A stretch of 64,000 nt of DNA from Podarcis pityusensis (Eukaryota): the NCBI GenBank assembly GCA_964106645.2, contig OZ067041.1. One strand, 5' to 3'. Position numbers and translations under genes: made by a program. This document shows, in pieces, positions 28,409-59,500 of the stretch. How positions within the stretch are numbered: position 1 is the first letter of the stretch; each line of letters opens with the position of its first letter. The notes beneath the pieces were generated by a model, which saw only the letters and a program-made list of their open reading frames with translations, did no database searches and had not been told where the DNA came from.

Positions 28409-29963
28409 GGTAAAGGAGGAGAGAAAGAGATGGTCCCATCTGCTTTTGGCTCTTACCCCACATACCACCAGCATGTTCCCAATAAATTACCCCAGAGGGA
28501 ATACAGCACTTGAGAGTCAGGCGGCTGCCCTTCTCTGCATTAAACTATACAAACAGGGGACTATAGAATGTTACAACAGCATTTATCTGAAAGTACATGC
28601 CATTAATGCTCAGTTTTATTACCATTTAAATCAAAGATCTTATCAATAAATGAACAATTAAATGCCAGATGTTTTTCTTGCCTATGAAATGTACAATTAT
28701 TTACCCATGACAGTGGAGGGCATGGGCTAGGTAGTACATCCAATTAACTGACCCGAAGAGAATCTGCATTACTTACGAACTAACTTATTTAGTTTTCAGG
28801 TACTAAGTACATTGCAGTAATTTAAAGGATACTAATAAGACACGGGCTTCTGTATATTTTACTCCCATAAAGAAGAAAATTCTCTGCAAACACTGCTGTA
28901 GAACATTGTTAGCTTCTTCATCTGAGATAACATTAACTCCCATAACAGGGTTCAATGAACTAAATATTAGCCCATCCAATGTACAAGGCCCATTAATGTA
29001 AACCACCAGGACTAACACTCAAGCTGGATGTTGCTGGTGCAATTCAATTATCACCAGCAATCAATTTCCATTTTCACTTTTTTAAGATAAGCAATGGAAT
29101 TGTTAATGATACGACAGGCAGAATGGATTTTACAGCAGAAAAAATAGTCAAGAAAATATAGCACAAGAAATAGCATATATCATACCTAAAGCAAAGTAAC
29201 GTAGAAATAAAACCAAGCACTACTAATTTATTCTCTATTTATCGTTTATTTTGTATTTTTTTACTTGTTTCATGAGATAATCCAGCTAATACGAAGCGTT
29301 TTAAAATCCCTTTTATTGTAATTGTGGAGTTATGCACTTGCTTAGGGCTGCAACCCTAAACTTGCTTGCTATAGAGTAAGCTCCACTGGGATGCTGTGGG
29401 GCTTGCTTCTAGGTCAACATGCATGGGATTGCAATGTAAGTCATTCCTATTGAAATGAATATAATTTAAAAGGGCTTCGTTGTAGGGAGAAAATGAGCAC
29501 TGCTTTTATAGACAGTCACCATGAATTGTTATAAAATACCATACCATACCATACCATACCATTCCATATACAGTGGTGCCCTGCAAGACGAACGCCCCGC
29601 AAGACGAAAAACTCGCGAGACGAAAGGTTTTTTCGTTTTCGAGTTGCTTCGCAAGATGCATTTCCCTATGGGCTTGCTTCGTAAGACGAAAACGTCTTGC
29701 AAGTTTGTTTCCTTTTTCGTAAAACCGTTAAAACCCAGGGTGCATTGCTGGAAGAGGTGCAGTTGCGACTTGACTTCGAGGAGCAACACATTGCACGTGG
29801 TGTGGTGGCCTTTTTGAGCTTTTTAAAGAGTTTGCTGAATTTTTGAAGCTTTTCCAAAACTTCTTTTGCAGCTGTTTGGTAAGTTAAACTTTTAAAACTT
29901 TTTTGGGGGTTTTTGGATTTTGGGTTGGGGTGTTTAGAATTCAAGGATTTGGTGTTGGGGAGA

Positions 29964-30460
29964 GGTTTGCGAGAATCTGGGAGCTTGTGTGGTTTTTTTC
30001 TGCATTTTTATGATTTTCTGTGACCATTGGGCCATGTTTATTTTTTTTTGAAAAAAAAATCTGGGTTTGAATTTCTGTGTGCTGGGTGGCTGGGGGAACA
30101 GCTGGGAAGGGGTTTGCAAGAATCTGGGAGCTTGTGTGGGGTTTTTTTTGAATTTTTATGGTTTTCTGTGACCATTGGGCCATGTTGTTGTTTTTTGAAA
30201 AAATTTCTGGGTTTTGAATTTCTGTGTGCTGGGTGGCTGGGGGAACAGCTGGGGAGGGGTTTGCAAAAATCTGGGAGCTTGTGTGGGTTTTTTTTTTATT
30301 TTTTATGGTTTTCTGTGACCATTGGGCCATGTTGGTTTTTTTTGAAAAAATTTCTGGGTTTTGAATTTCTGTGTGCTGGGTGGATGGGGGAACAGTTGAG
30401 GAGGGGTTTGCAACAGTTGGGGAGGGGTTTGCAACAGTTGGGGAGGGGCTGGGGGAACAG
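29964..30460 (+). repeat. Tandem array: 3 x 147-bp units then 21-bp units, inside the Tigger leader
   Basis: Anchor GGTTTGC recurs at 29964, 30111, 30258 and 30405, followed by GCAACAGTTGGGGAGGGGTTT repeats. Confidence 0.95.
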
Positions 30461-30701
30461 TTGAGGTTTTTGAAGACTTTGGTGATTTTTAAAGCTTTCC
30501 CAAAACTTCTTTTGCAGCCATTTGAGGATTTTGAAGACTTTGGTGATTTGCAGCCATTTCGTAAGTTAAACTTTTAAAACTTTTTTGGGGTTTTTTGGAT
30601 TTTGGGTTGGGTGTTTGGAATTCAAGGACTTGGTTCTGGGTTTGAATTGCTGATTTTTTTTTTCCTTTTTCTGAGTTTACGAAGGTAAGAGCTGTGCTGC
30701 C

Positions 30702-32405
30702 ATGGGACCCAAGAAGACTGCTGCTGCTGCGGAGGCCGGCAAGAGGAAGAAGGAGAAGGTGACGCTGGAAATGAAGAAGGAGATCATCTGGAAGCACGAT
30801 GGTGGAATGCGTGTGACGGACCTTGCCAGGGAGTACGGCAGGAACCCATCGACCATCGGGACCATCCTGAAGATGAGGGAGAAGATCCTTGCGACTGATG
30901 CAGCCAAGGGAGTCACCAGGATCGTGAAGAACCGCCCAGCTGTTCTGGAGGAGGTCGAGAAGTTGCTGCTCATCTGGTTAGAAGAGAAGCAGCGTGCAGG
31001 GGACACAGTGACTGAGGCCGTCATTTGTGAGAAGGCCAAGGCCTTGCACGCAGACCTCATCCGGGAACAGCCAGGAACCTCAGGCGAGCCAGAAGTCTTC
31101 AAGGCAATCAGAGGCTGGTTTGACCGGTTCAAGGCAAGATCTGGAATCCACAGCGTGGTCAGGAATGGAGAGGCTGCCAGTTCTGATGTTCCTGCGGCTG
31201 AAGACTTTGCCTTGGAGTTCCTGGAGGCTGTGAAGACAGAGGGCTACGTTCCACAGCAGGTCTTCAACTGCGACGAGACCGGGCTGTTTTGGAAGAGGAT
31301 GCCCAAAAGGACTTTCCTCACACAGGAGGAGGCCAAGTTGCCTGGCCACAAGCCCATGAAGGACCGTCTGACCCTGCTCTTCTGTGCCAACGCAAGCGGC
31401 GACCTGAAGATCAAGCCCCTGCTGGTGTACCACTCGGAGGACCCACAGGCCTTCAAGAAACACAAGGTCGACAAGGAGCGGCTGAGTGTCATGTGGCGAT
31501 CCAACAGCAAGGCTTGGGTCACACGTGTGCTGTTTGTGGACTGGGTCAATCTTGCTTTTGGCCCTGCTGTCAAACAGTACCTGCTGGACAACGACCTGCC
31601 GCTGAAGGCTTTGCTTCTGATGGACAATGCTCCTGCTCATCCTAAAGGCCTTGAGGTGGACTTGTTGGAGGAGTTCAGCTTCATCAACATCATGTTCCTG
31701 CCGCCTAACACCACGCCACTGCTCCAGCTGATGGATCAGCAGGTCTTCGCCAATTTCAAAAAACTCTACACCAAGGAGCTTTTCAGGCGATGCTTCGAGG
31801 TGACTGATTGCACCACCATCACCCTGCGGGAATTCTGGAAGGACCACTTCGACATCGTCACCTGCTTGAAGATGATCACCACGGCCTGGAACGGGATGAG
31901 CCAGAGAAATTTGAGTGGCGCTTGGCGCAGCCTGTGGCCGGACTGTGTGGCACCAAGTGACTCTGATGCACCAGAGTCAACAGTGGCGCAGGACATTGTT
32001 GCCTTGGGGAGGACCATGGGCCTGGAGGTCACAGAGGAGGACGTCTGCGAGCTGGTGGAGGAGCACGACCACGAGCTGACCACCCAGGAGCTGGTTGAAC
32101 TGCAGTCAGAGGTTGCGCAGGAGCAGGCCTCGCTGGAAGAGGAGGAAGCAACTGAGGAACGGCCGTCCTCCAAAGAACTGAGGGACATATGCCAGAAGTG
32201 GAAGGAGGTGCAGGCTTTTGCAGAGCGGCACCACTCTAACAAGCACGTGGCACATGACCTAGCGAACACTTTTGATACGACGGTCATGTTGCCTCTCAGG
32301 GAGCTGCTGAAAAGGCGGATGAAGCAGCAGACCATGGACAGGTTCCTCAGCAAGAAGCAAAGAGTGGAAGAGGAACCTTCTTCAAATGGTCCCCCAGAGT
32401 CTTAG
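30702..32405 (+). CDS. Tigger/pogo transposase, 567 aa (TIGD1-like; CENP-B-type HTH domains plus DDE_1 domain, DD36D)
   Basis: Strong Kozak GCTGCCATGG. N-terminal HTH (VTDLAREYGRNPSTIGTILK), second HTH ending RGWFDRFK, catalytic FNCDETG, MDNAPAH and MDQ with 36 residues between D2 and D3, C-terminal PIP-box-like QQTMDRFL. Confidence 0.96.
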   Translation: MGPKKTAAAAEAGKRKKEKVTLEMKKEIIWKHDGGMRVTDLAREYGRNPSTIGTILKMREKILATDAAKGVTRIVKNRPAVLEEVEKLLLIWLEEKQRAGDTVTEAVICEKAKALHADLIREQPGTSGEPEVFKAIRGWFDRFKARSGIHSVVRNGEAASSDVPAAEDFALEFLEAVKTEGYVPQQVFNCDETGLFWKRMPKRTFLTQEEAKLPGHKPMKDRLTLLFCANASGDLKIKPLLVYHSEDPQAFKKHKVDKERLSVMWRSNSKAWVTRVLFVDWVNLAFGPAVKQYLLDNDLPLKALLLMDNAPAHPKGLEVDLLEEFSFINIMFLPPNTTPLLQLMDQQVFANFKKLYTKELFRRCFEVTDCTTITLREFWKDHFDIVTCLKMITTAWNGMSQRNLSGAWRSLWPDCVAPSDSDAPESTVAQDIVALGRTMGLEVTEEDVCELVEEHDHELTTQELVELQSEVAQEQASLEEEEATEERPSSKELRDICQKWKEVQAFAERHHSNKHVAHDLANTFDTTVMLPLRELLKRRMKQQTMDRFLSKKQRVEEEPSSNGPPES

Positions 32406-33605: not shown

Positions 33606-34182
33606 TAGAATCATAGAATCATAGAATCATAGAGTTGGAAGAGACCACAAGCGCCATCGAGTCCAACCCCCTGCCAAGCAGGAAACACCATCAGAGTACT
33701 CCTGACATATGGTTGTCAAGCCTCTGCTTAAAGACCTCCAAAGAAGGAGACTCCACCACACTCCTTGGCAGCAAATTCCACTGTTGAACAGCTCTTACTG
33801 TCAGGAAGTTCTTCCTAATGTTTAGGTGGAATCTTCTTTCTTGTAGTTTGGATCCATTGCTCCGTGTCCGCTTCTCTGGAGCAGCAGAAAACAACATTTC
33901 TCCCTCCTCTATGTGACATCCTTTTATATATTTGAACATGGCTATCATATCACCCCTTAACCTCCTCTTCTCCAGGCTAAACATGCCCAGCTCCCTTAGC
34001 CGTTCCTCATAAGGCATCGTTTCCAGGCCTTTGACCATTTTGGTTGCCCTCCTCTGGACACGTTCCAGTTTGTCAGTGTCCTTCTTGAATTGTGGTGCCC
34101 AGAACTGGACACAGTACTCCAGGTGAGGTCTGACCAGAGCAGAATACAGTGGCACTATTACTTCCCTTGATCTAGATGCTAT
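33606..34182 (-). mobile_element. Young 5'-truncated CR1 LINE
   Basis: (ATTCTATG)n tail. Uninterrupted ORF2 C-terminus ([15 protein letters not shown]...[11 protein letters not shown]...WNLLP). Short TSD AGGTCA at 33600-33605 and 34183-34188. Confidence 0.95.
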
Positions 34183-36280
34183 AGGTCAACCTGGGCTTTT
34201 ACAGGACTATCAAACAAGGCAACTGGGAACTCATACACAGGCATGGGTAAGTATCACTTGAGAAACAGCAATGCTTGCCAATGTAGCAACCAAAACATGA
34301 CATTCCAGAACAAGTAATCTGAAGGCCTCCAATTCCATCACCAAAGCACTCCTGTCATCTCAGGCACACGGACTGTTGAGCAATGAGATAGGCAGCACTC
34401 CAAGAGAATCCCTGTGCTTTCTCTCTCAGCACAAGATGCATATAGTCAGAGTCAGCAGACCTGAGTAGAGGGGGAAAGAACCCCTTAGACCACAGCATCT
34501 AGTCTTAAATCAGAAAACAAAACAATTAACAGGAAGGAGTTACAGAGGTATGTTACTAAAATAAATCAGCAGTCTATTGAATGGGACTATTCTAGTACTT
34601 TGTGATTAATTCCAACAGTTAATATACCAATATTTATCTATGTAGTTAAACCTCCAGAAATATCTAGCTTTTGTTAAAGGAAAAAAAGGAATTACAGTAT
34701 GCATTAATCATTTTATGTAGGGAATAATAAACCTTATTCAAATTGATAAAACATAGTATAAAAAGCTGTTTGAATACCAAGTTTCTCTAAAATATTTATA
34801 ATTAGCAGCTGCAAAAATGGCAGCTGTATGCTAGCTGTAGTTCTGGAGAAGCATATGGATAAGTAGGCTCTCCAAATGTGGAGGAAAAATATGATGCTAA
34901 AAATTATTTGCAAATGCAATATTTAATTGCAATGAACACAATTAAGCAAAGTTAAGCATTCTAAATCCTATTGATTTGAACAGAAGTGCTTATGAACATC
35001 TAGAAATCATTCTCATTAGAATCTTTGAGACTTTAAATCCCCAGAAGTCCGCCGTAATACAAATGCATTCATTTATATCAATCCCTTGTTATCTTTCATT
35101 CTCTGCCCACTGTCAGGCTTTCAGATGTTATGTTCCTTGGCACAGGTGATGTGGCACCTACATTTTTGTTTACGCAGTAAAGTAGCAACCCATCTGATCA
35201 GCAGATGTATGTTCTGGCTGCCAAGTGAGGTTGCTTAAACTGCATTGAGCAGAGCCAGGCGCTCTGGATGCCCAGCCTTCGCAAGTGGAAAGCACTTTTG
35301 GTCTGAGAGGGCAATGAAGTTGACAGGTGTTCCTTTTAGGCATCTGACTGCTCTTGTATTTTCCCCTGAACACTGCAGGTTTAAAATAGGTCACTTATTA
35401 GGTTTTGTGTGTCCACTACTCTCAGCTGTTCCCCAGTCAGCAGAGCAGCCCAATGGGAACTGCAGGGAGAGAGGAATGTTTTCAACCTTCCCTAACCCTC
35501 AAGTGATTCTGATGAATATTACCTCTCCCCATGCTGCTATTAAGCTTGTTCCTAAATGGGAATTGCAGGGGAGGGGGATATTTAGCCAGCTGAGAAGGGC
35601 TACCTAGTAGGGAAAAGACAGCTGGGAGAGACAGTGCGTGAAATACCTCTGATCCTAACCCACTGCCATTTCCAGCGCACCCATTGCTGAAAGTTTATTC
35701 AAGAAAATCCTGCTCTTCATGGAAGAATAAATAAATATTGCTCTTATTGCTGCAGTCTTTTCGAGGCTTTAGGGCTGAGTACTGTCAGTTCAGAACACAG
35801 CATACATGCACAGTCAAACACCAGGTAGGGAACATAATGTCTTAACTGAGCATTTGCTGCCCTGCTACTCACACCAACCTCTGCAGAAGGGGGGGGGGGC
35901 AGCAACACTTTCTCAACTGATTGAGAAGCTTCCAACAGCTCATCTGACATTCCCTGATGAAAGAGAGCTAAGGAAAAATAGCAAACTATTAAGTGACTTT
36001 GAAAGATGACTTGATCCCACAGCTTGTATATTGTAAGCTCAAAGGTATATATTATAATTGACATTGCATTTTTATTGCTTGGTATATCAAGTGTGCTTTG
36101 CATTATATCCATAATGCTGACATAGGCCTTATGAATTCCTGGTATGAAAGCATTATTTATTAACTGCAACTGAATTTTGTTCACAGTCAACACAACAGTA
36201 TTTGTCAATCAATGTTGGTTTTTAAAAGGAAAGCTCAGTCAGTGTGACTTCCCCTGCTGAAAACCTACTGCTAACCTATG

Positions 36281-39404: not shown

Positions 39405-39900
39405 TTTTTTATATACCACTTAAGCATAAAAGCTTTTAAGTGGTTAACACAAAATATACATTAAAAATATCAAACAGGCAGTATAAAATAAAATTACATA
39501 TTAAAGTGCACATCAAAGGTACATGTCTCGGTAGGATTTCCTAAACAAAAAGGGTTTTTAGCAAGTGCCAAAAGCAATACAGTGAAGGGAGCTTCCTAAA
39601 TCAATGGGCAGGGAGTTCCAGTGTATAGATGCTGCCACAGTGAAGGGTCGAATACTTGCAAGTCCAGAATGAACATTATGTGGTACCGATTGCAAAAGGG
39701 CATAAAGGAGTAAGGTAAACTGGTCCCAAGCTGTTATGTGCTTTATATATTAGCACAATGAATTTGGCTTGGCAAACTACTACAGATCTCTGAGCAGGGG
39801 TATAATATGTTGACAGGGATATGTGAGCAATTGTGCTGCAACATTATGCAAGGGAGATTGCAGCTGGGTTTCTGAAATGTGCATATCAGGCTAAAGGGTT
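39405..39900 (-). mobile_element. Ancient L2-like 3' fragment
   Basis: GGCAGGGAGTTCCAG...GCTGCCACAGTGAAGG resembles the L2 WNALP region in reverse; TTTATATACCAC terminus. Confidence 0.5.
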
Positions 39901-39980
39901 CTAGGTTTGAGAATATGGTGCACGGAATGAAATAACATGCAACCAACATGCAAGTCCCCTATCAATTTGAACAGGTGGTC

Positions 39981-40615
39981 TGTGATGGCCTGGGATTCGG
40001 ACTCAGATGCTGAACCTGAGGGATCCCAGCCTGCACAGGATTCCCCGCCTCCAGAACCAGCTGAACTGGGCTGGGGCATGAGCCTGAAGGGTCCTCACCT
40101 GTGCTGGATCCTCAGGTACAGGCATCAGCTGAGCCTGCTCTGGCTCCTGAGGTGATGGAGGGCCCATTGCCTGCAGGTGCTCCACTCTCTGAGGAAGCTG
40201 AGGTTGCCTCTGGGTCTGCTAACCCTCCAGCCTCTCCTGAGCTACAGAGGCTCAGGGCAGAGAGGCGGAGGGAACTAAGTTCCTGCAGGAGGAGTGCTCG
40301 CCTCCAGGCCAGGAGAGGCGAGTCTCCAGAGGATCGGGGCCACCCTATGCCTCAGGGCAGATAAAAGCCAGCCAGCTCCAGTCACAAGTTGTGGGAGCAA
40401 CATTGTTGGTTGCTAGTTCCTGCCTGAACCCTGTCCTGCTTTTCAGCCAGAGCTCCTGACCCGCCCTGGCTCCCTGCTTCCATGCCTGTTCCTGACTTCA
40501 CCTGACTCCCTGCCCTGCACCCAGCTTCAGCTACTACGGACTGCCTCCACGTTGCACCTTTGACCACGGACTGGACTTGGACCTCACCTTTTGGGTAACC
40601 CACGGGACCAGCACA
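39981..40615 (+). mobile_element. Solo LTR, 635 bp, 5-bp TSD
   Basis: TGTG...CACA with imperfect inverted ends (TGTGATGGCC / TGTGCTGGTC). TSD TGGTC at 39976-39980 and 40616-40620. TATA-like ATAAAA at 40361. Confidence 0.88.
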
Positions 40616-41184
40616 TGGTCAAAGAAACAGATCAATAAAGTTCATGGATGAAGGATGAAGAACAGACATCTTTACTCTAGGGAATTCTATTAGGTATTTG
40701 TCTTTAAAAATACATGTTCATGCATTGTGAAAAAGCATCAACATTTGACTAAGACAGACATATGATACTTTTTGATATAAATGGTTCCAGTTCACAGAGA
40801 ACATTAGTGGTATTAAATTCATTTGTGCTTTCCCTATCATCTTTAAGCGGAAGAATTATAGTGAAAGAAATATTTTTATGCCTTATCTACATGCTCACAG
40901 GGAGATGACTATGGCAGACCTAATTACATTCACAATGAACTCTCAGAAAAAGTGGTGCAGAGGTGAAATTTTCATTAAAACAATTACTCATATCTTCATA
41001 CACTAATTCATAAACAGATCCTAAACTGCAGAGTGGGGAGTTTTAAAACTGTATCAACTACATTTCTGCAGCAATGAACATTCTCCACGCTTGGCATGAG
41101 AAGGTGTGTACTCAGAGCCTTTTCAGGGAGAAGAGAAACAAATTGAAAGAAGAAGAATGGATTCAGTCTCCAAATTAAACTGAG

Positions 41185-46843: not shown

Positions 46844-47944
46844 GTTGTTGTTGTTTAGTCGTTTAGTCGTGTCCGACTCTTCATGACCCCATGGACCAGA
46901 GCACGCCAGGCACTTCTGTCTTCCACTGTCTCCCGCAGTTTGGTCAGACTCATGTTTGTAGCGTCGAGAACACTGTCCAACCATCTCGTCCTCTGTCGTC
47001 CCCTTCTCCTTGTGCCCTCAATCTTTCCCAACATCAGGGTCTTTTCCAGGGAGTCTTCTCTTCTCATGAGGTGGCCAAAGTATTGGAGCCTCAGCTTCAC
47101 GATCTGTCCTTCCAGTGAGCACTCAGGGCTGATTTCCTTAAGAATGGATGCGTTTGATCTTCTTGCAGTCCATGGGACTCTCAAGAGTCTCCTCCAGCAC
47201 CATAATTCAAAAGCATTAATTCTTCGGCGATCAGCCTTCTTTATGGTCCAGCTCTCACTTCCATACATCACTACTGGGAAAACCATGGCTTTTACTATAC
47301 GGACCTTTGTTGGCAAGGTGATGTCTCTGCTTTTTAAGATGTTGTCTAGGTTTGCCATCACCTTTCTCCCAAGGAGCAGGCGTCTTTTAATTTCGTGACT
47401 GCTGTCACATCTGCAGTGATCATGGAGCCCAAGAAAGTAAAATCTCTCACTGCCTCCATTTCTTCCCTTCTACTTGCCAGGAGGTGATGGGACTAGTGGC
47501 CATGATCTTCGTTTTTTTGATGTTGAGCTTCAGACCATATTTTGCGCTTTCCTCATTCACCCTCATTAAAAGGTTCTTTAATTCTTCCTCACTTTCTGCC
47601 ATCAAGGTTGTGTCATCTGCATATCTGAGGTTGTTGATATTTCTTCCGGCGATCTTAATTCCGGCTTGGGATTCATCCAGCCCACCCTTTCGCATGATGA
47701 ATTCTGCATATAAGTTAAATAAGCAGGGAGACAATATACAGCCTTGCCGTACTCCTTTCCCAATTTTGAACCAATCAGTTGTTCCATATCCAGTTCTAAC
47801 TGTAGCTTCTTGTCCCACATAGAGATTTCTCAGGAGACAGATGAGGTGATCAGGCACTCCCATTTCTTTAAGAACTTGCCATAGTTTGCTGTGGTCGACA
47901 CAGTCAAAGGCTTTTGCATAGTCAATGAAGATGTCTTTCTGGAA
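46844..47944 (-). mobile_element. BovB (RTE) LINE, 5'-truncated, 1.1 kb
   Basis: RT motifs GVRQGCILSP and LRYADDTTL, C-terminal FELWCWRRLLRVPW, (CAA)n tail. 14-bp TSD CTGGCAGGGGAAAT at 46830-46843 and 47945-47958. Frameshifted near 47400-47460. Confidence 0.96.
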
Positions 47945-48567
47945 CTGGCAGGGGAAATAGGGGTCTCCTAACCATGCTCAGCACGCTTGATAAACAATAA
48001 ATTGAATTATCTTTGATTTTCAGACACTAGCCTTTTTTATTAAAAAAACAAGTGCATAACAGTAAAGAGTTTCTGAACTTACTAAATCAGTTCTGATTTA
48101 GCATGAGACTTTTCTTTTTTAAAAAATGCCCTGCTAAGGCAAATTTCAAAGCAAATGCAGTTCAGTGTTCTCATATTGCAAGTTGTAAGGGGTTGCGGTG
48201 GGGAGAGTGAATTATGACAACCTTGCAGTGTTGTTCATAATGAATACTGCAGGTTAGGCTCTGAGTGATTTACACAAAGCCCTGCATTGTTATCACGACC
48301 CTTATTGGAGGTTGGGATCTGTGTACCAATAAGGAAATGAACTTAAATGACATCGGTGTTTATTAGAAAACCTAGAAGAACCATTTATACATGTGTTAAG
48401 TCCTGCAAATTTAACATCATTCATATGACAAGTACAACTTTAACGACTGGGAAATTTGTTTTTTTAGCATTACCGATTTTGGAGTGTGGAGAAATACTCT
48501 CATTTTAAAATAAGAAGGAAGATAGGTAGGAAAGTGGGTAGATATGATATGGGGAAAATAGGCTGTA

Positions 48568-56025: not shown

Positions 56026-56558
56026 TTATTTATACCCCGCCCACTGGCTGGGTTTCCCCAGCCACTCTGGGTGGCTTTCAACCGAATATTAAAAACAATA
56101 CAGCATCAGACATTAAAAACTTCCCTAAACAGGGCCGCCTTCAGTTGTCTTTTAAAAGTAAAATAGTTGTTTATTGCCTTGACATCTGCTGGGAGGGCAT
56201 TCCACAGGGCAGGCGCCACTATCGAGAAGGCCCTCTGTCTGGTTCCCTGTAACGTGGCTTCTCGCAGTGAGGGAACCGCCAGAAGGCCCTCGGCGCTGGA
56301 CCTCAGTGGATGATGATGGGGGTGGAGACGCTCCTTCAGGTATACAGGACTGAGGCCGTTTAGGGCCTTAAAGGTCAGCACAAACACTTTGAATTGTACT
56401 CGGAAACGTACTGGGAGCCAATGCAGATCTCTCGGGACCGGTGTTATATGGTCTCGGAGGCCGCTCCCAGTCACCAGTCTAGCTGCTGCATTCTGGATTA
56501 ACTGCAGTTTCCAAGTCACCTTCAAAGGTAGCTCCATGTAGAGCGCATTGCAGTAGTC
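55990..56558 (-). mobile_element. L2 LINE 3' fragment with (ATG)n tail
   Basis: ORF2 C-terminus DYCNALY...LQLIQNAAARLVTG...DHITPV...LHWLPV...WNALP; (CAT)n at 55990-56024. Confidence 0.94.
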
Positions 56559-59500
56559 CAATTGTTGTTTCCTGTATATGCATGTGTAATGCAGTCATGA
56601 TAACTGAAGCACGAGCTGAAAGATTTTAACCAAATTCAGTGTATACTGTGCAGGGCTTTTGCAGTACCAGTGTTGGGCTAGAAATTATTATTTGTTTATT
56701 ATTTTGGAATTTTGTCACATATCTATTCAACAAACTGCCTGACTGAGGTGAAATTTCAAACACAAGAGCTTAACTTCCGTACTGTGTTGTGACATAAAAA
56801 TACGTATATGAATATTATGTACTTGAAAACGCTCAATATGACCCCTGTTACAGTGAGAGGCCTTGCAGTGTCCGGTCTCTGCAGCACTGTGTTCTGTGCA
56901 CAGCCAGGCTTCCTGGTCCAAGTTGAATGTTCTATTGACAGCATAGCACTGAATTACATGTATTGGTTGACTGATATAGTCAAAAGCCTGATAACTGTAA
57001 ATGCAAAACATTGCAAAACTTGCACTACAATCTTTGTATTGCTATGCAGGAGCTTACTTTAAAAAGAAAAAAATCACTGTTTCCATGTCTTAAAACAGGT
57101 GTTTTTTTTGGTATTCATTTTCCTCCAGAACCAATTTAGAAATTCCATGCTTAAAAGAGGTAAGCAGTGAGCAGTATCAGGGAAGGAAGAAGGGAGGAAG
57201 GTGCTGACAAAAAGGAAACTGATAGACATTTTTATAGTTCGGATTTCCATTTTCACTCATATAAAAAAGGCAGAATATTAAGGAAATCCATCGATTTCTA
57301 TCAGTCCTCAGTCTTATTTTCATGAATTCATATCTCTCATTTTAAAATTAATCCAGTTCTTGATATGAATTAAATGCACCAAATAGAGAAAAACTATACA
57401 AAAGGAATGAAAAATGTCACTGCTGGTTCCAATCTCTTCTCTGTATTCAAACAATTACCATGTATTATCAACCTCCCAACAGAAGAGCAAACTAATATGT
57501 GATATTGTTTTGCTATCCTATACCCAGGAGAAGTAAAAGTGAATACTGTGAGAAACACATAAAATATATTATTTTAAATATAATACATTTTAGATATCTT
57601 CTCTCTTTAATAAGAAAGCCTGTGGGGGAAATTTCCCAATGTATTGGGGTATTAGAATTAAAGAAAGGGGATTAAATACATAAAGTTTGCAGAGAGTAAA
57701 TCAATTAAATGATTTTTGTTTATTATGATTTTAAATGCTACTAAATGAAGGAATGTACAGGATATGCTTTATATCCTGCCTTTATTAGCACTGTAGGTAT
57801 AATTTAAAAGTTTACAGTATTTTACTGGGAAGCCTTCAGCACTTTAAGAAAATGAAGTTTCTAAAATATGTGCAGTCCTCTACTACCTGCTTCAGATGGT
57901 CATTGTCCAGTTTGTGTAGAGTAACAAGAACAACAATGAGGACTGGAAGTGGATCTAACATGTTCATCCATAAAGCACTCCCTCACACATACTTACTTAA
58001 CACAGAAACAGAGCACCTGCAGAGATATTCTAGTGAAAAAGTTCCATGTCTTCAGTGATGGTTTGTTACTCTAACTTTGCATTATAACTTTCTTTTTCTT
58101 TTTCAAAATCACTGTATTAATATTCATCAGTTCAGAGAAACCACTATTATCATCTTACTATGGTTTTTTGCGTTAAGCATATTATGTGTATGTGTGTGTT
58201 GTGACAAAGTGTCATTGAAAAACCTAAGTAATTCATTTAATCATGTTTTCACATTGGATAATTTTATCTCTACTCCTAAATTTTACAAGTGTTTGTGTAA
58301 TCCCTATATTTGCATATTTATTGACATTTGCAAGATAGGAAAGATGTATGAACTGAGCAACCATGCTTACAAGTAAAATATCAGCTTTGGATATGAGCAG
58401 CCCAGATACCTTGTTTATTAGAACACCATCTCATATTACTCCCTTAGGAGTATTCTGTACTCTGTGTACACCAATTATCCGAAGTTTCAAGGGAAAGCAG
58501 GGTAAATAATAAATGATACTGTAAGGACATTGCTGTTGAGTTTACCATACTCTAGGGGAACGTAATATAAAAATTAAATCTCCTAATTCTGCCACTATAA
58601 TAGGAAACATTAACATCAAATGTCACTTAACTGCATTTATGAAGGTTAGTTAATAAGCATCGTGGGTACCTTAAGACTGAATTTATTTAATTTTTGTGGA
58701 ATCTTATTCAACCAGAGGATTATTAGCACAAGATATATTTTTCTTTCTACATAGGATGCTTCTAAAATATCCTCATCCAAATTCCTCCTGCCGTTTGGAG
58801 TTCTGAAGCACCTGCTCTTGTTTGAGAACTGGAACCGATTAATTAGAAATCCTCCATTCACCCCCCCCCCCCCACCTTCACAATTTTGTAGATTCAGACT
58901 GTACATACATAGCTTGCCTCAGCTTTGAGTTATGCTCTGGAAACAAACAAACAAAATTACATGTAATGCTTCCATGATACCTAAAATAGACACTTCTTCC
59001 AACTACAATGATATCTTACACCCATTTCAAGCCCATATAGATCTGGTCTCTGAAACAATGAATCAGCTTCGCTCCACAAAGAGGGATGAAAAGATTTCTC
59101 CTTATCCATTCCTTTTCTGATCCTCTTGTTTACTCTGTGCTGCATTCTATTCTTCCTGAATGGCAATTAAACCAGGAGAGTTTGTAAAATTAATTCTGCA
59201 CAGAGTTCTTCAGCTTTCCCACCTCTCCCAGAGACTTATGTGCACATTGATGAAGAACTGACAAAATGCCTGGAGTATGGAAGATGCAATCTTGATGTAA
59301 TCATAAACATAACTGCATCAAAATTAGTTTTGTTCGGCATTTACTGATAGGCAGATTGGTTAAACACTACCCAAAATGGCAACTTTGTGTTCCAGAACAC
59401 CAGGCTGGTCGTTGGGTGGTGTTTTGTCACTGCACACATATGCTATTAGTAAAGCACTGAACAAAAGGAATCCATTTAATTGTGCATACAGTTCTATCAA

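Follow-up and report, generated by a model that had tools for sequence, protein, structure and literature searches.

Coding sequence inside an LTR is known from several settings. The U3-overlapping genes of retroviruses, MMTV sag and HIV nef, are separate genes on spliced RNAs. A precedent of another kind comes from plants: in CRM group A and in Bingo, Pol reads on into the 3′ LTR, which codes for a putative targeting motif (PMC3059260, PMC3605345). Elements of the Tf1/sushi group are self-priming. Hairpin priming is mentioned in PMC3601003, group I chromodomains are defined in PMC3605345 and PMC3350952, and the chromodomain of MAGGY has been shown to read methyl-lysine (PMC3350952). Tethers of another kind bind the acidic patch of the nucleosome. 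The HMGN motif RRSARLSA does so through R23 and R26, in a complex on which AlphaFold 3 fails (PMC12487698), Dsup and yeast Dot5 (RRSARIAT) use HMGN-like motifs outside HMGN (PMC13347269), and PFV Gag and probably MLV p12 are acidic-patch tethers that serve integration (PMC9040877, PMC12336834).

The window analyzed here (64,000 nucleotides of Podarcis pityusensis DNA, from contig OZ067041.1 of GenBank assembly GCA_964106645.2) contains a solo LTR that begins with TGTG and ends in CACA (Table 1). A preliminary description had assigned a reading frame to U3 in an LTR retrotransposon of a lizard, and it was right to do so. The frame ends at the TATA box, about 30 bases before the inferred start of R, and therefore occupies U3, with the LTR promoter downstream of it; GGGAGCAA, at 40393, falls in that inferred R start. 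From the TGTG at 39981 and the ATG at 39985 the frame reads MAWDSDSDAEPEGSQPAQDSPPPEPAELG up to a single frameshift near 40065–40070, correctly noted earlier as lying near 40070; the second frame starts at 40065, is open to 40364 and ends ...RRSARLQARRGESPEDRGHPMPQGR, with its TAA (40362–40364) inside ATAAAA. RRSARL is not the end of the peptide, as had been stated, since 20 further codons follow it before the stop. Compared with most of its sisters, the copy in the window also lacks 9 bases, a loss that keeps the frame. The composition of the tail is divided: the first 86 residues are acidic and proline-rich (18 D/E, 0 K/R), and the last 43 are basic (14 K/R). Pfam found no family in the LTR-encoded tail alone for two proteins, and ESM Atlas gave no usable match.

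Table 1. Coordinates of the solo LTR and of the reading frame within it (positions in the window).
Feature	Position	Strand	Remarks
Solo LTR, Ty3/gypsy chromovirus, subfamily W	39981..40615	+	TG..CA, 635 bp
Left target-site duplication TGGTC	39976..39980	.	identical to 40616-40620
Right target-site duplication TGGTC	40616..40620	.	identical to left copy
5′ terminal inverted repeat (att end), ATG at 39985 inside	39981..39988	+	7/8 bases match reverse complement of 3′ end
First, acidic block of putative LTR-encoded integrase tail (MAWDSDSDAE...)	39985..40065	+	continues the pol frame in full-length copies
Tail after frameshift: Pro/acidic spacer, basic core, end	40065..40364	+	sister copies open throughout
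Basic core SPELQRLRAERRREL..RRSARL.AR, 27 codons	40233..40313	+	omega 0.23-0.42 net pairwise vs young subfamilies; ~0.3 by ML
RRSARL, HMGN-like motif	40287..40304	+	identical to start of HMGN RRSARLSA
TATA-like ATAAAA overlapping stop codon	40361..40366	+	~30 bases upstream of self-priming site
Inferred start of R	40391..40400	+	complementary to sequence behind 5′ LTR of full-length elements (self-priming)

Searching the genome with the window LTR gave 2408 candidates, 40 of which were scored; the 39 other than the window are 92–94% identical to it. Subfamily W copies are ~94% alike pairwise, and by this measure the subfamily is therefore old and mostly solo. Neither a primer site nor a PPT adjoins any of the 30 best W copies, and 26 of these 30 solos are flanked by a 5-bp target duplication with at most one mismatch (20 exact, 6 with one mismatch). 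An uninterrupted 127–129-codon frame from the same ATG is present in 20 of the 30 (that is, in 20 of the 29 other than the window copy, which is not open). This sharing is more than chance, and the reading frame originally described is real. The window copy itself is inert: it is a solo LTR, its frame is broken and its promoter lies downstream of the frame, so that it makes no product. DNA related to the window LTR is present in sequencing runs under six organism labels, with no RNA run among the matches listed, and an Rfam scan around the LTR returned two matches, both at chance level. Elsewhere in the window, a 576-codon open frame at 30675–32405 on the minus strand, which we take to resemble a Tigger/pogo transposase, lies next to a 147-bp tandem array (29956–30413). 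There are also LINE reverse-transcriptase fragments at 33691–34185, 46855–47977 and 56106–56594, presumably CR1-, RTE- and L2-like.

Intact relatives were found by pattern. Purines followed by the LTR start matched 383 times in the genome (some double-counted; control 0), and a primer-site pattern matched 262 times, giving about 260 such elements by that count. Twenty full-length elements fetched from these matches represent three young subfamilies, only ~75% alike to the window LTR. They are 5.6–5.9 kb long, their LTR pairs differ by 0–3 mismatches, and all 19 that could be parsed have an exact 5-bp duplication. In two natural full-length copies Pfam identified gag, protease, RT, RNase H, integrase, SH3_Tf2-1 and Chromo; the order in Pol is PR, RT, RH, IN, SH3_Tf2-1, Chromo, with Chromo at 1084–1131 of 1270 amino acids, and the three aromatic residues (Y-W-Y cage) of a group I chromodomain are visible in the sequence of P0003. 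The nearest protein matches are chromodomain gypsy proteins of fish, frogs and fungi. The preliminary description had proposed checking whether pol enters the U3 frame in full-length elements, and it does in 16 of the 20: a single open frame begins ahead of RT, takes in the chromodomain, crosses the PPT (GRGDGV-MAWDS) and ends with the stop at the TATA box, with 116 codons inside the LTR in these young elements, the other four having a stop or frameshift. Across subfamilies, pol runs 116–129 codons into the 3′ U3. For subfamily W, one of 25 pattern matches (3′ LTR L104) is preceded by pol, whose chromodomain stays in frame over the 82 codons before the LTR, and the window subfamily is tied to chromodomain elements through L104 and L170. 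A UniRef Pol labelled Podarcis muralis (P0004) already includes the tail.

From this continuity we conclude that the U3 frame is almost certainly the C-terminal tail of Pol, that is, of the integrase after its chromodomain. It is no accessory gene, because it is in frame with pol and no stop lies between them. The earlier suggestion that it might be fused to an upstream ORF thus held, and the suggestion that it is expressed as an accessory protein of its own did not. The likeness to MMTV sag and HIV nef is confined to the coding sequence lying inside U3; the lizard frame, unlike theirs, is continuous with pol. We consider it very unlikely that a separate sag- or nef-like peptide is made from the LTR ATG via a spliced or read-through RNA. 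That ATG is kept in all seven subfamilies and has G at −3 and +4, which we take to be a good context under the Kozak rule, and ab initio gene models (P0081–P0085) start there. However, the retention count is biased in that the copy searches required the ATG. The ATG also falls within the terminal inverted repeat, and among 60 relatives with a recognizable junction only 8 have Met after the junction Val, compared with Thr in 31. The promoter and the inferred R start also lie downstream of the frame, and RNA reads of the family are mostly first-mate-plus, probably antisense, and run into varied flanks.

Those reads come from four runs labelled as another organism, of which 6–12% of the raw run was sampled. 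On the LTR they are mostly 90–95% identical; none lies on the flanks adjoining the window LTR and no starts or ends cluster in these samples, and the reads show neither expression of the window copy nor translation. At 39713–39749 and 39981 of the window, reads with recurring loose ends come from other loci, ones with related repeats or with LTR copies in host transcripts. Public gene models P0081–P0086 and P0018 take the ATG of the LTR as their start and are joined by splicing to gag or to a host ANF-receptor (PF01094) gene; gene models of this kind are probably prediction artefacts.

By its domains and LTR features the lizard element is placed with the Tf1/sushi-type chromoviruses, with which it shares the SH3_Tf2-1 plus Chromo order, the Y-W-Y cage, TG..CA ends, a 5-bp target-site duplication and a PPT. 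It also shares a primer site complementary to the LTR, as in self-priming: in 18 of 19 parsed elements the 10-mer TTGCTCCCGC that follows the 5′ LTR can pair with the LTR from positions 390–392 onward, ~30 bases after the TATA box. It differs from them in having 116–129 pol codons in U3, whereas most fish relatives enter the LTR only briefly and have an RGRP motif before the PPT. Like CRM group A and Bingo, it has a Pol frame that enters the 3′ LTR with a putative targeting motif. In CRM group A, however, the CR motif replaces the chromodomain; the lizard element keeps a canonical chromodomain upstream of the PPT, its LTR adds a second, unrelated motif, and its host is a vertebrate. To judge from these features, it is an element with a CRM-like layout and not a member of CRM group A. 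A pattern search of the genome for further families in which this PPT is followed by another LTR start gave no matches, and a Pfam Chromo search of the genome mostly recovered the same young subfamilies. Those subfamilies (L061–L080) differ in gag-pol layout, one having a single 1623-codon frame and the others gag and pol in different frames; one young element, L063, interrupts a long frame which presumably resembles a copia-type pol.

The same genome holds a second, distant chromovirus clade (L166, L167, L169 and L171, on C9, C14, C19 and C1 of G000) with a degenerate chromodomain. Its pol reads ~110 codons into its own 432-bp LTR; five of the seven copies fetched read through, one of them for ~80 codons. 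Related subfamilies of this clade have in common an Arg/Lys cluster with L.CW.K, not RRSARL, and in L166, L167, L171 and L173 what follows the 5′ LTR is close to a complement of the first bases of the LTR, and not obviously of an R start.

Is the tail maintained as protein? Natural copies only were compared: of 133 LTR starts gathered, the 108 with open 116–129-codon frames were kept, leaving 66 in seven groups after removal of identical rows, a sample in which the open-frame filter and the search patterns (with their required ATG) favor intact starts. Two checks had been proposed at the outset, indels in multiples of three and dN/dS below 1 between subfamilies. On the first, the only net indel inside the frame across the seven subfamilies is 30 bases, whereas behind the stop non-triplet indels abound in the copies from which that stretch could be extracted. 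The second came out in part, with omega ~0.3 in two blocks and a weak 0.8 for the whole tail. Between subfamilies W and A, net pN/pS in the pol frame was 0.51 (bootstrap CI 0.33–0.76), or 0.19 for codons 1–27, 0.80 for the spacer and 0.23 (0.01–0.93) for the basic core; it was 1.26 in frame +2, 1.28 in frame +3 and 0.56 in the mirror frame −2, which has the same third positions. Whole-tail values for W versus E (0.75) and W versus F (0.68) both overlap 1, and within dead W copies the basic core gave 0.93. A maximum-likelihood codon model with transition bias and one copy per subfamily yielded omega 0.8 for the whole tail (p 0.17), 1.0 for the spacer and 1.3 for other frames, compared with ~0.3 for codons 5–27 (p 0.015) and ~0.3 for the basic core (p 0.022), the acidic-start and basic-core blocks having been chosen after the alignment was inspected; with 13 copies the p values were 0.4 for the whole tail, 0.043 for codons 5–27 and 0.056 for the basic core. 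The whole-tail omega is far above that of the pol domains (0.02–0.16), and at synonymous sites the LTR has diverged less than pol (0.14 compared with ~0.4). The values point to modest purifying selection on the acidic start and the basic core; across the whole tail selection is weak and does not show in the codon model.

A skeptic might propose that pol simply lost its stop before the PPT, that the resulting frame is tolerated, and that the conserved blocks are DNA constraints such as the att end and promoter-proximal elements. We regard such passive read-through as unlikely, even though whole-tail omega does not differ from 1 in the ML analysis, the conserved blocks adjoin the att end and sit 50–130 bases upstream of the TATA box, and many fish relatives read just 10–25 codons into the LTR. 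Within the 27 codons of the basic core, 16 are invariant and six show residue changes; the remaining five vary silently only, which speaks against a merely tolerated frame. Across the seven copies compared, however, the RRSAR codons (five in all) show no change, silent sites included, and a DNA-level role, such as a promoter-proximal element, could explain this stretch for that reason. Also against mere tolerance, the third-position bias is confined to the pol frame and the mirror frame, 116–129 codons persist over ~30% divergence with neither stops nor frameshifts in a region bordered by many non-triplet indels behind the stop, and long acidic-then-basic tails recur in the second clade and in other squamates.

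The tail contains RRSARL, which is present in all seven subfamilies, is intact in 48 of 66 distinct copies, and fits the HMGN-like core RRSxRL with both anchor arginines. This likeness was recognized post hoc and in an Arg-rich stretch; shuffling gives a chance of 0.0001 (whole tail) to 0.0025 (local 30 amino acids) for exact RRSARL, and a local chance of 0.04–0.15 for RRSxR. The first six residues of the HMGN motif are identical, both anchor arginines are shared, and both motifs stand in a disordered acidic/basic protein context. In contrast to HMGN, the lizard tail shows no other HMGN feature or homology and is part of a retroelement Pol. The role proposed for it, a short basic motif that would tether the pre-integration complex to the acidic patch, is that of the PFV Gag chromatin-binding sequence (CBS) and probably of MLV p12; these are Gag-derived, whereas the lizard motif is on the integrase and encoded in U3.

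The distribution of the motif was surveyed in 205 distinct post-chromodomain tails from 328 proteins, many of them spliced gene models and with multi-chromodomain proteins dropped. RRSAR followed by L or I occurs in only one of them, P0227, a distant element with RRSARIAAR; RRSxR occurs in 6 of 205 relatives versus 2.9 expected (P 0.053), and AT-hook-like RGRP in 55 of 205 versus 3.5 expected, most of them from fish families that are themselves related. The junction and the acidic tail recur in models from Rhineura, Salvator, Naja and Anolis, the Rhineura tail ending KRGRPVSLRPKR, and RRSARL is absent from all four (these models may be spliced or cut short), as it is from the second chromovirus clade of the same genome. 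Within this survey RRSARL is clade-specific, and a basic module after the chromodomain looks general and exchangeable. Fish chromovirus integrases (gene models P0255–P0348) have PRPRGRPRR, which we take to be AT-hook-like, directly after the chromodomain, and often finish in a short LTR-encoded motif of the REPSPEY/F type. Four defective W copies (L181, L182, L184 and L186, at 2.4–6.1 Mb of C4 in G000) lack ~45 bases including the motif. They were considered as a sign that the motif is dispensable and set aside, their common flanks pointing to one duplicated insertion; a motif-less young copy was likewise set aside, its deletion being in the 3′ LTR only.

Our preferred reading, to which we give a probability of about 0.45, is that the LTR-encoded C-terminal tail of the integrase would act as a tether through the nucleosome acidic patch. 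Pol with its tail would be translated from genomic RNA, and within the pre-integration complex the tail would either remain attached to the integrase or be released from it as a p12-like fragment. A methyl-lysine mark would be recognized by the group I chromodomain, and the arginine anchor of the basic core, held on a long, disordered and near-neutral spacer, would dock on the nucleosome face. The chromatin tether or NLS imagined in the preliminary description could thus be carried by this tail, and not by a separate accessory factor. More tentatively, the element may have an HMGN-mimicking vertebrate integrase in which U3-encoded RRSARL grips the acidic patch and the chromodomain reads a histone mark, with squamate and fish chromoviruses swapping the second tether (AT-hook, HMGN motif or L.CWK cluster) as a targeting module written in the LTR.

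The tail could also be a true part of the integrase whose basic core is a generic NLS or nucleic-acid-binding patch, the HMGN likeness being coincidental. Relatives do end in basic stretches with other motifs (AT-hook-like RGRP, RRSSxR in 5 of 205, and the L.CWK-type cluster of the second clade), selection spans the whole 27-codon helix-like block beyond the motif, and plant chromovirus integrases have RK-rich, NLS-like stretches (PMC3605345). We nevertheless find coincidence somewhat unlikely, given that the local shuffle chance of exact RRSARL is 0.001–0.0025 and that RRSARIAAR is found in a distant element.

Acidic-patch tethers are already known from herpesviruses and from Gag products of foamy and gamma retroviruses, and there is precedent, too, for a Pol whose targeting motif is encoded in the 3′ LTR; what is added here is the variant of an HMGN-like motif in an integrase tail. 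Among the matches listed in a search of the open-access literature, we found no description of an acidic-patch or HMGN-like motif in an LTR retrotransposon integrase, and the word "retrotransposon" does not occur in the review PMC9040877. Thousands of solo LTR matches have spread the frame through the genome, where automated gene models have already made it an exon of host genes. If the motif fails, this is an ordinary chromovirus with a pol that overlaps its own LTR. If it works, it would reveal a route by which chromoviruses of vertebrates get to chromatin, mitotic or interphase, and would provide a compact example of a host chromatin motif copied by a mobile element.
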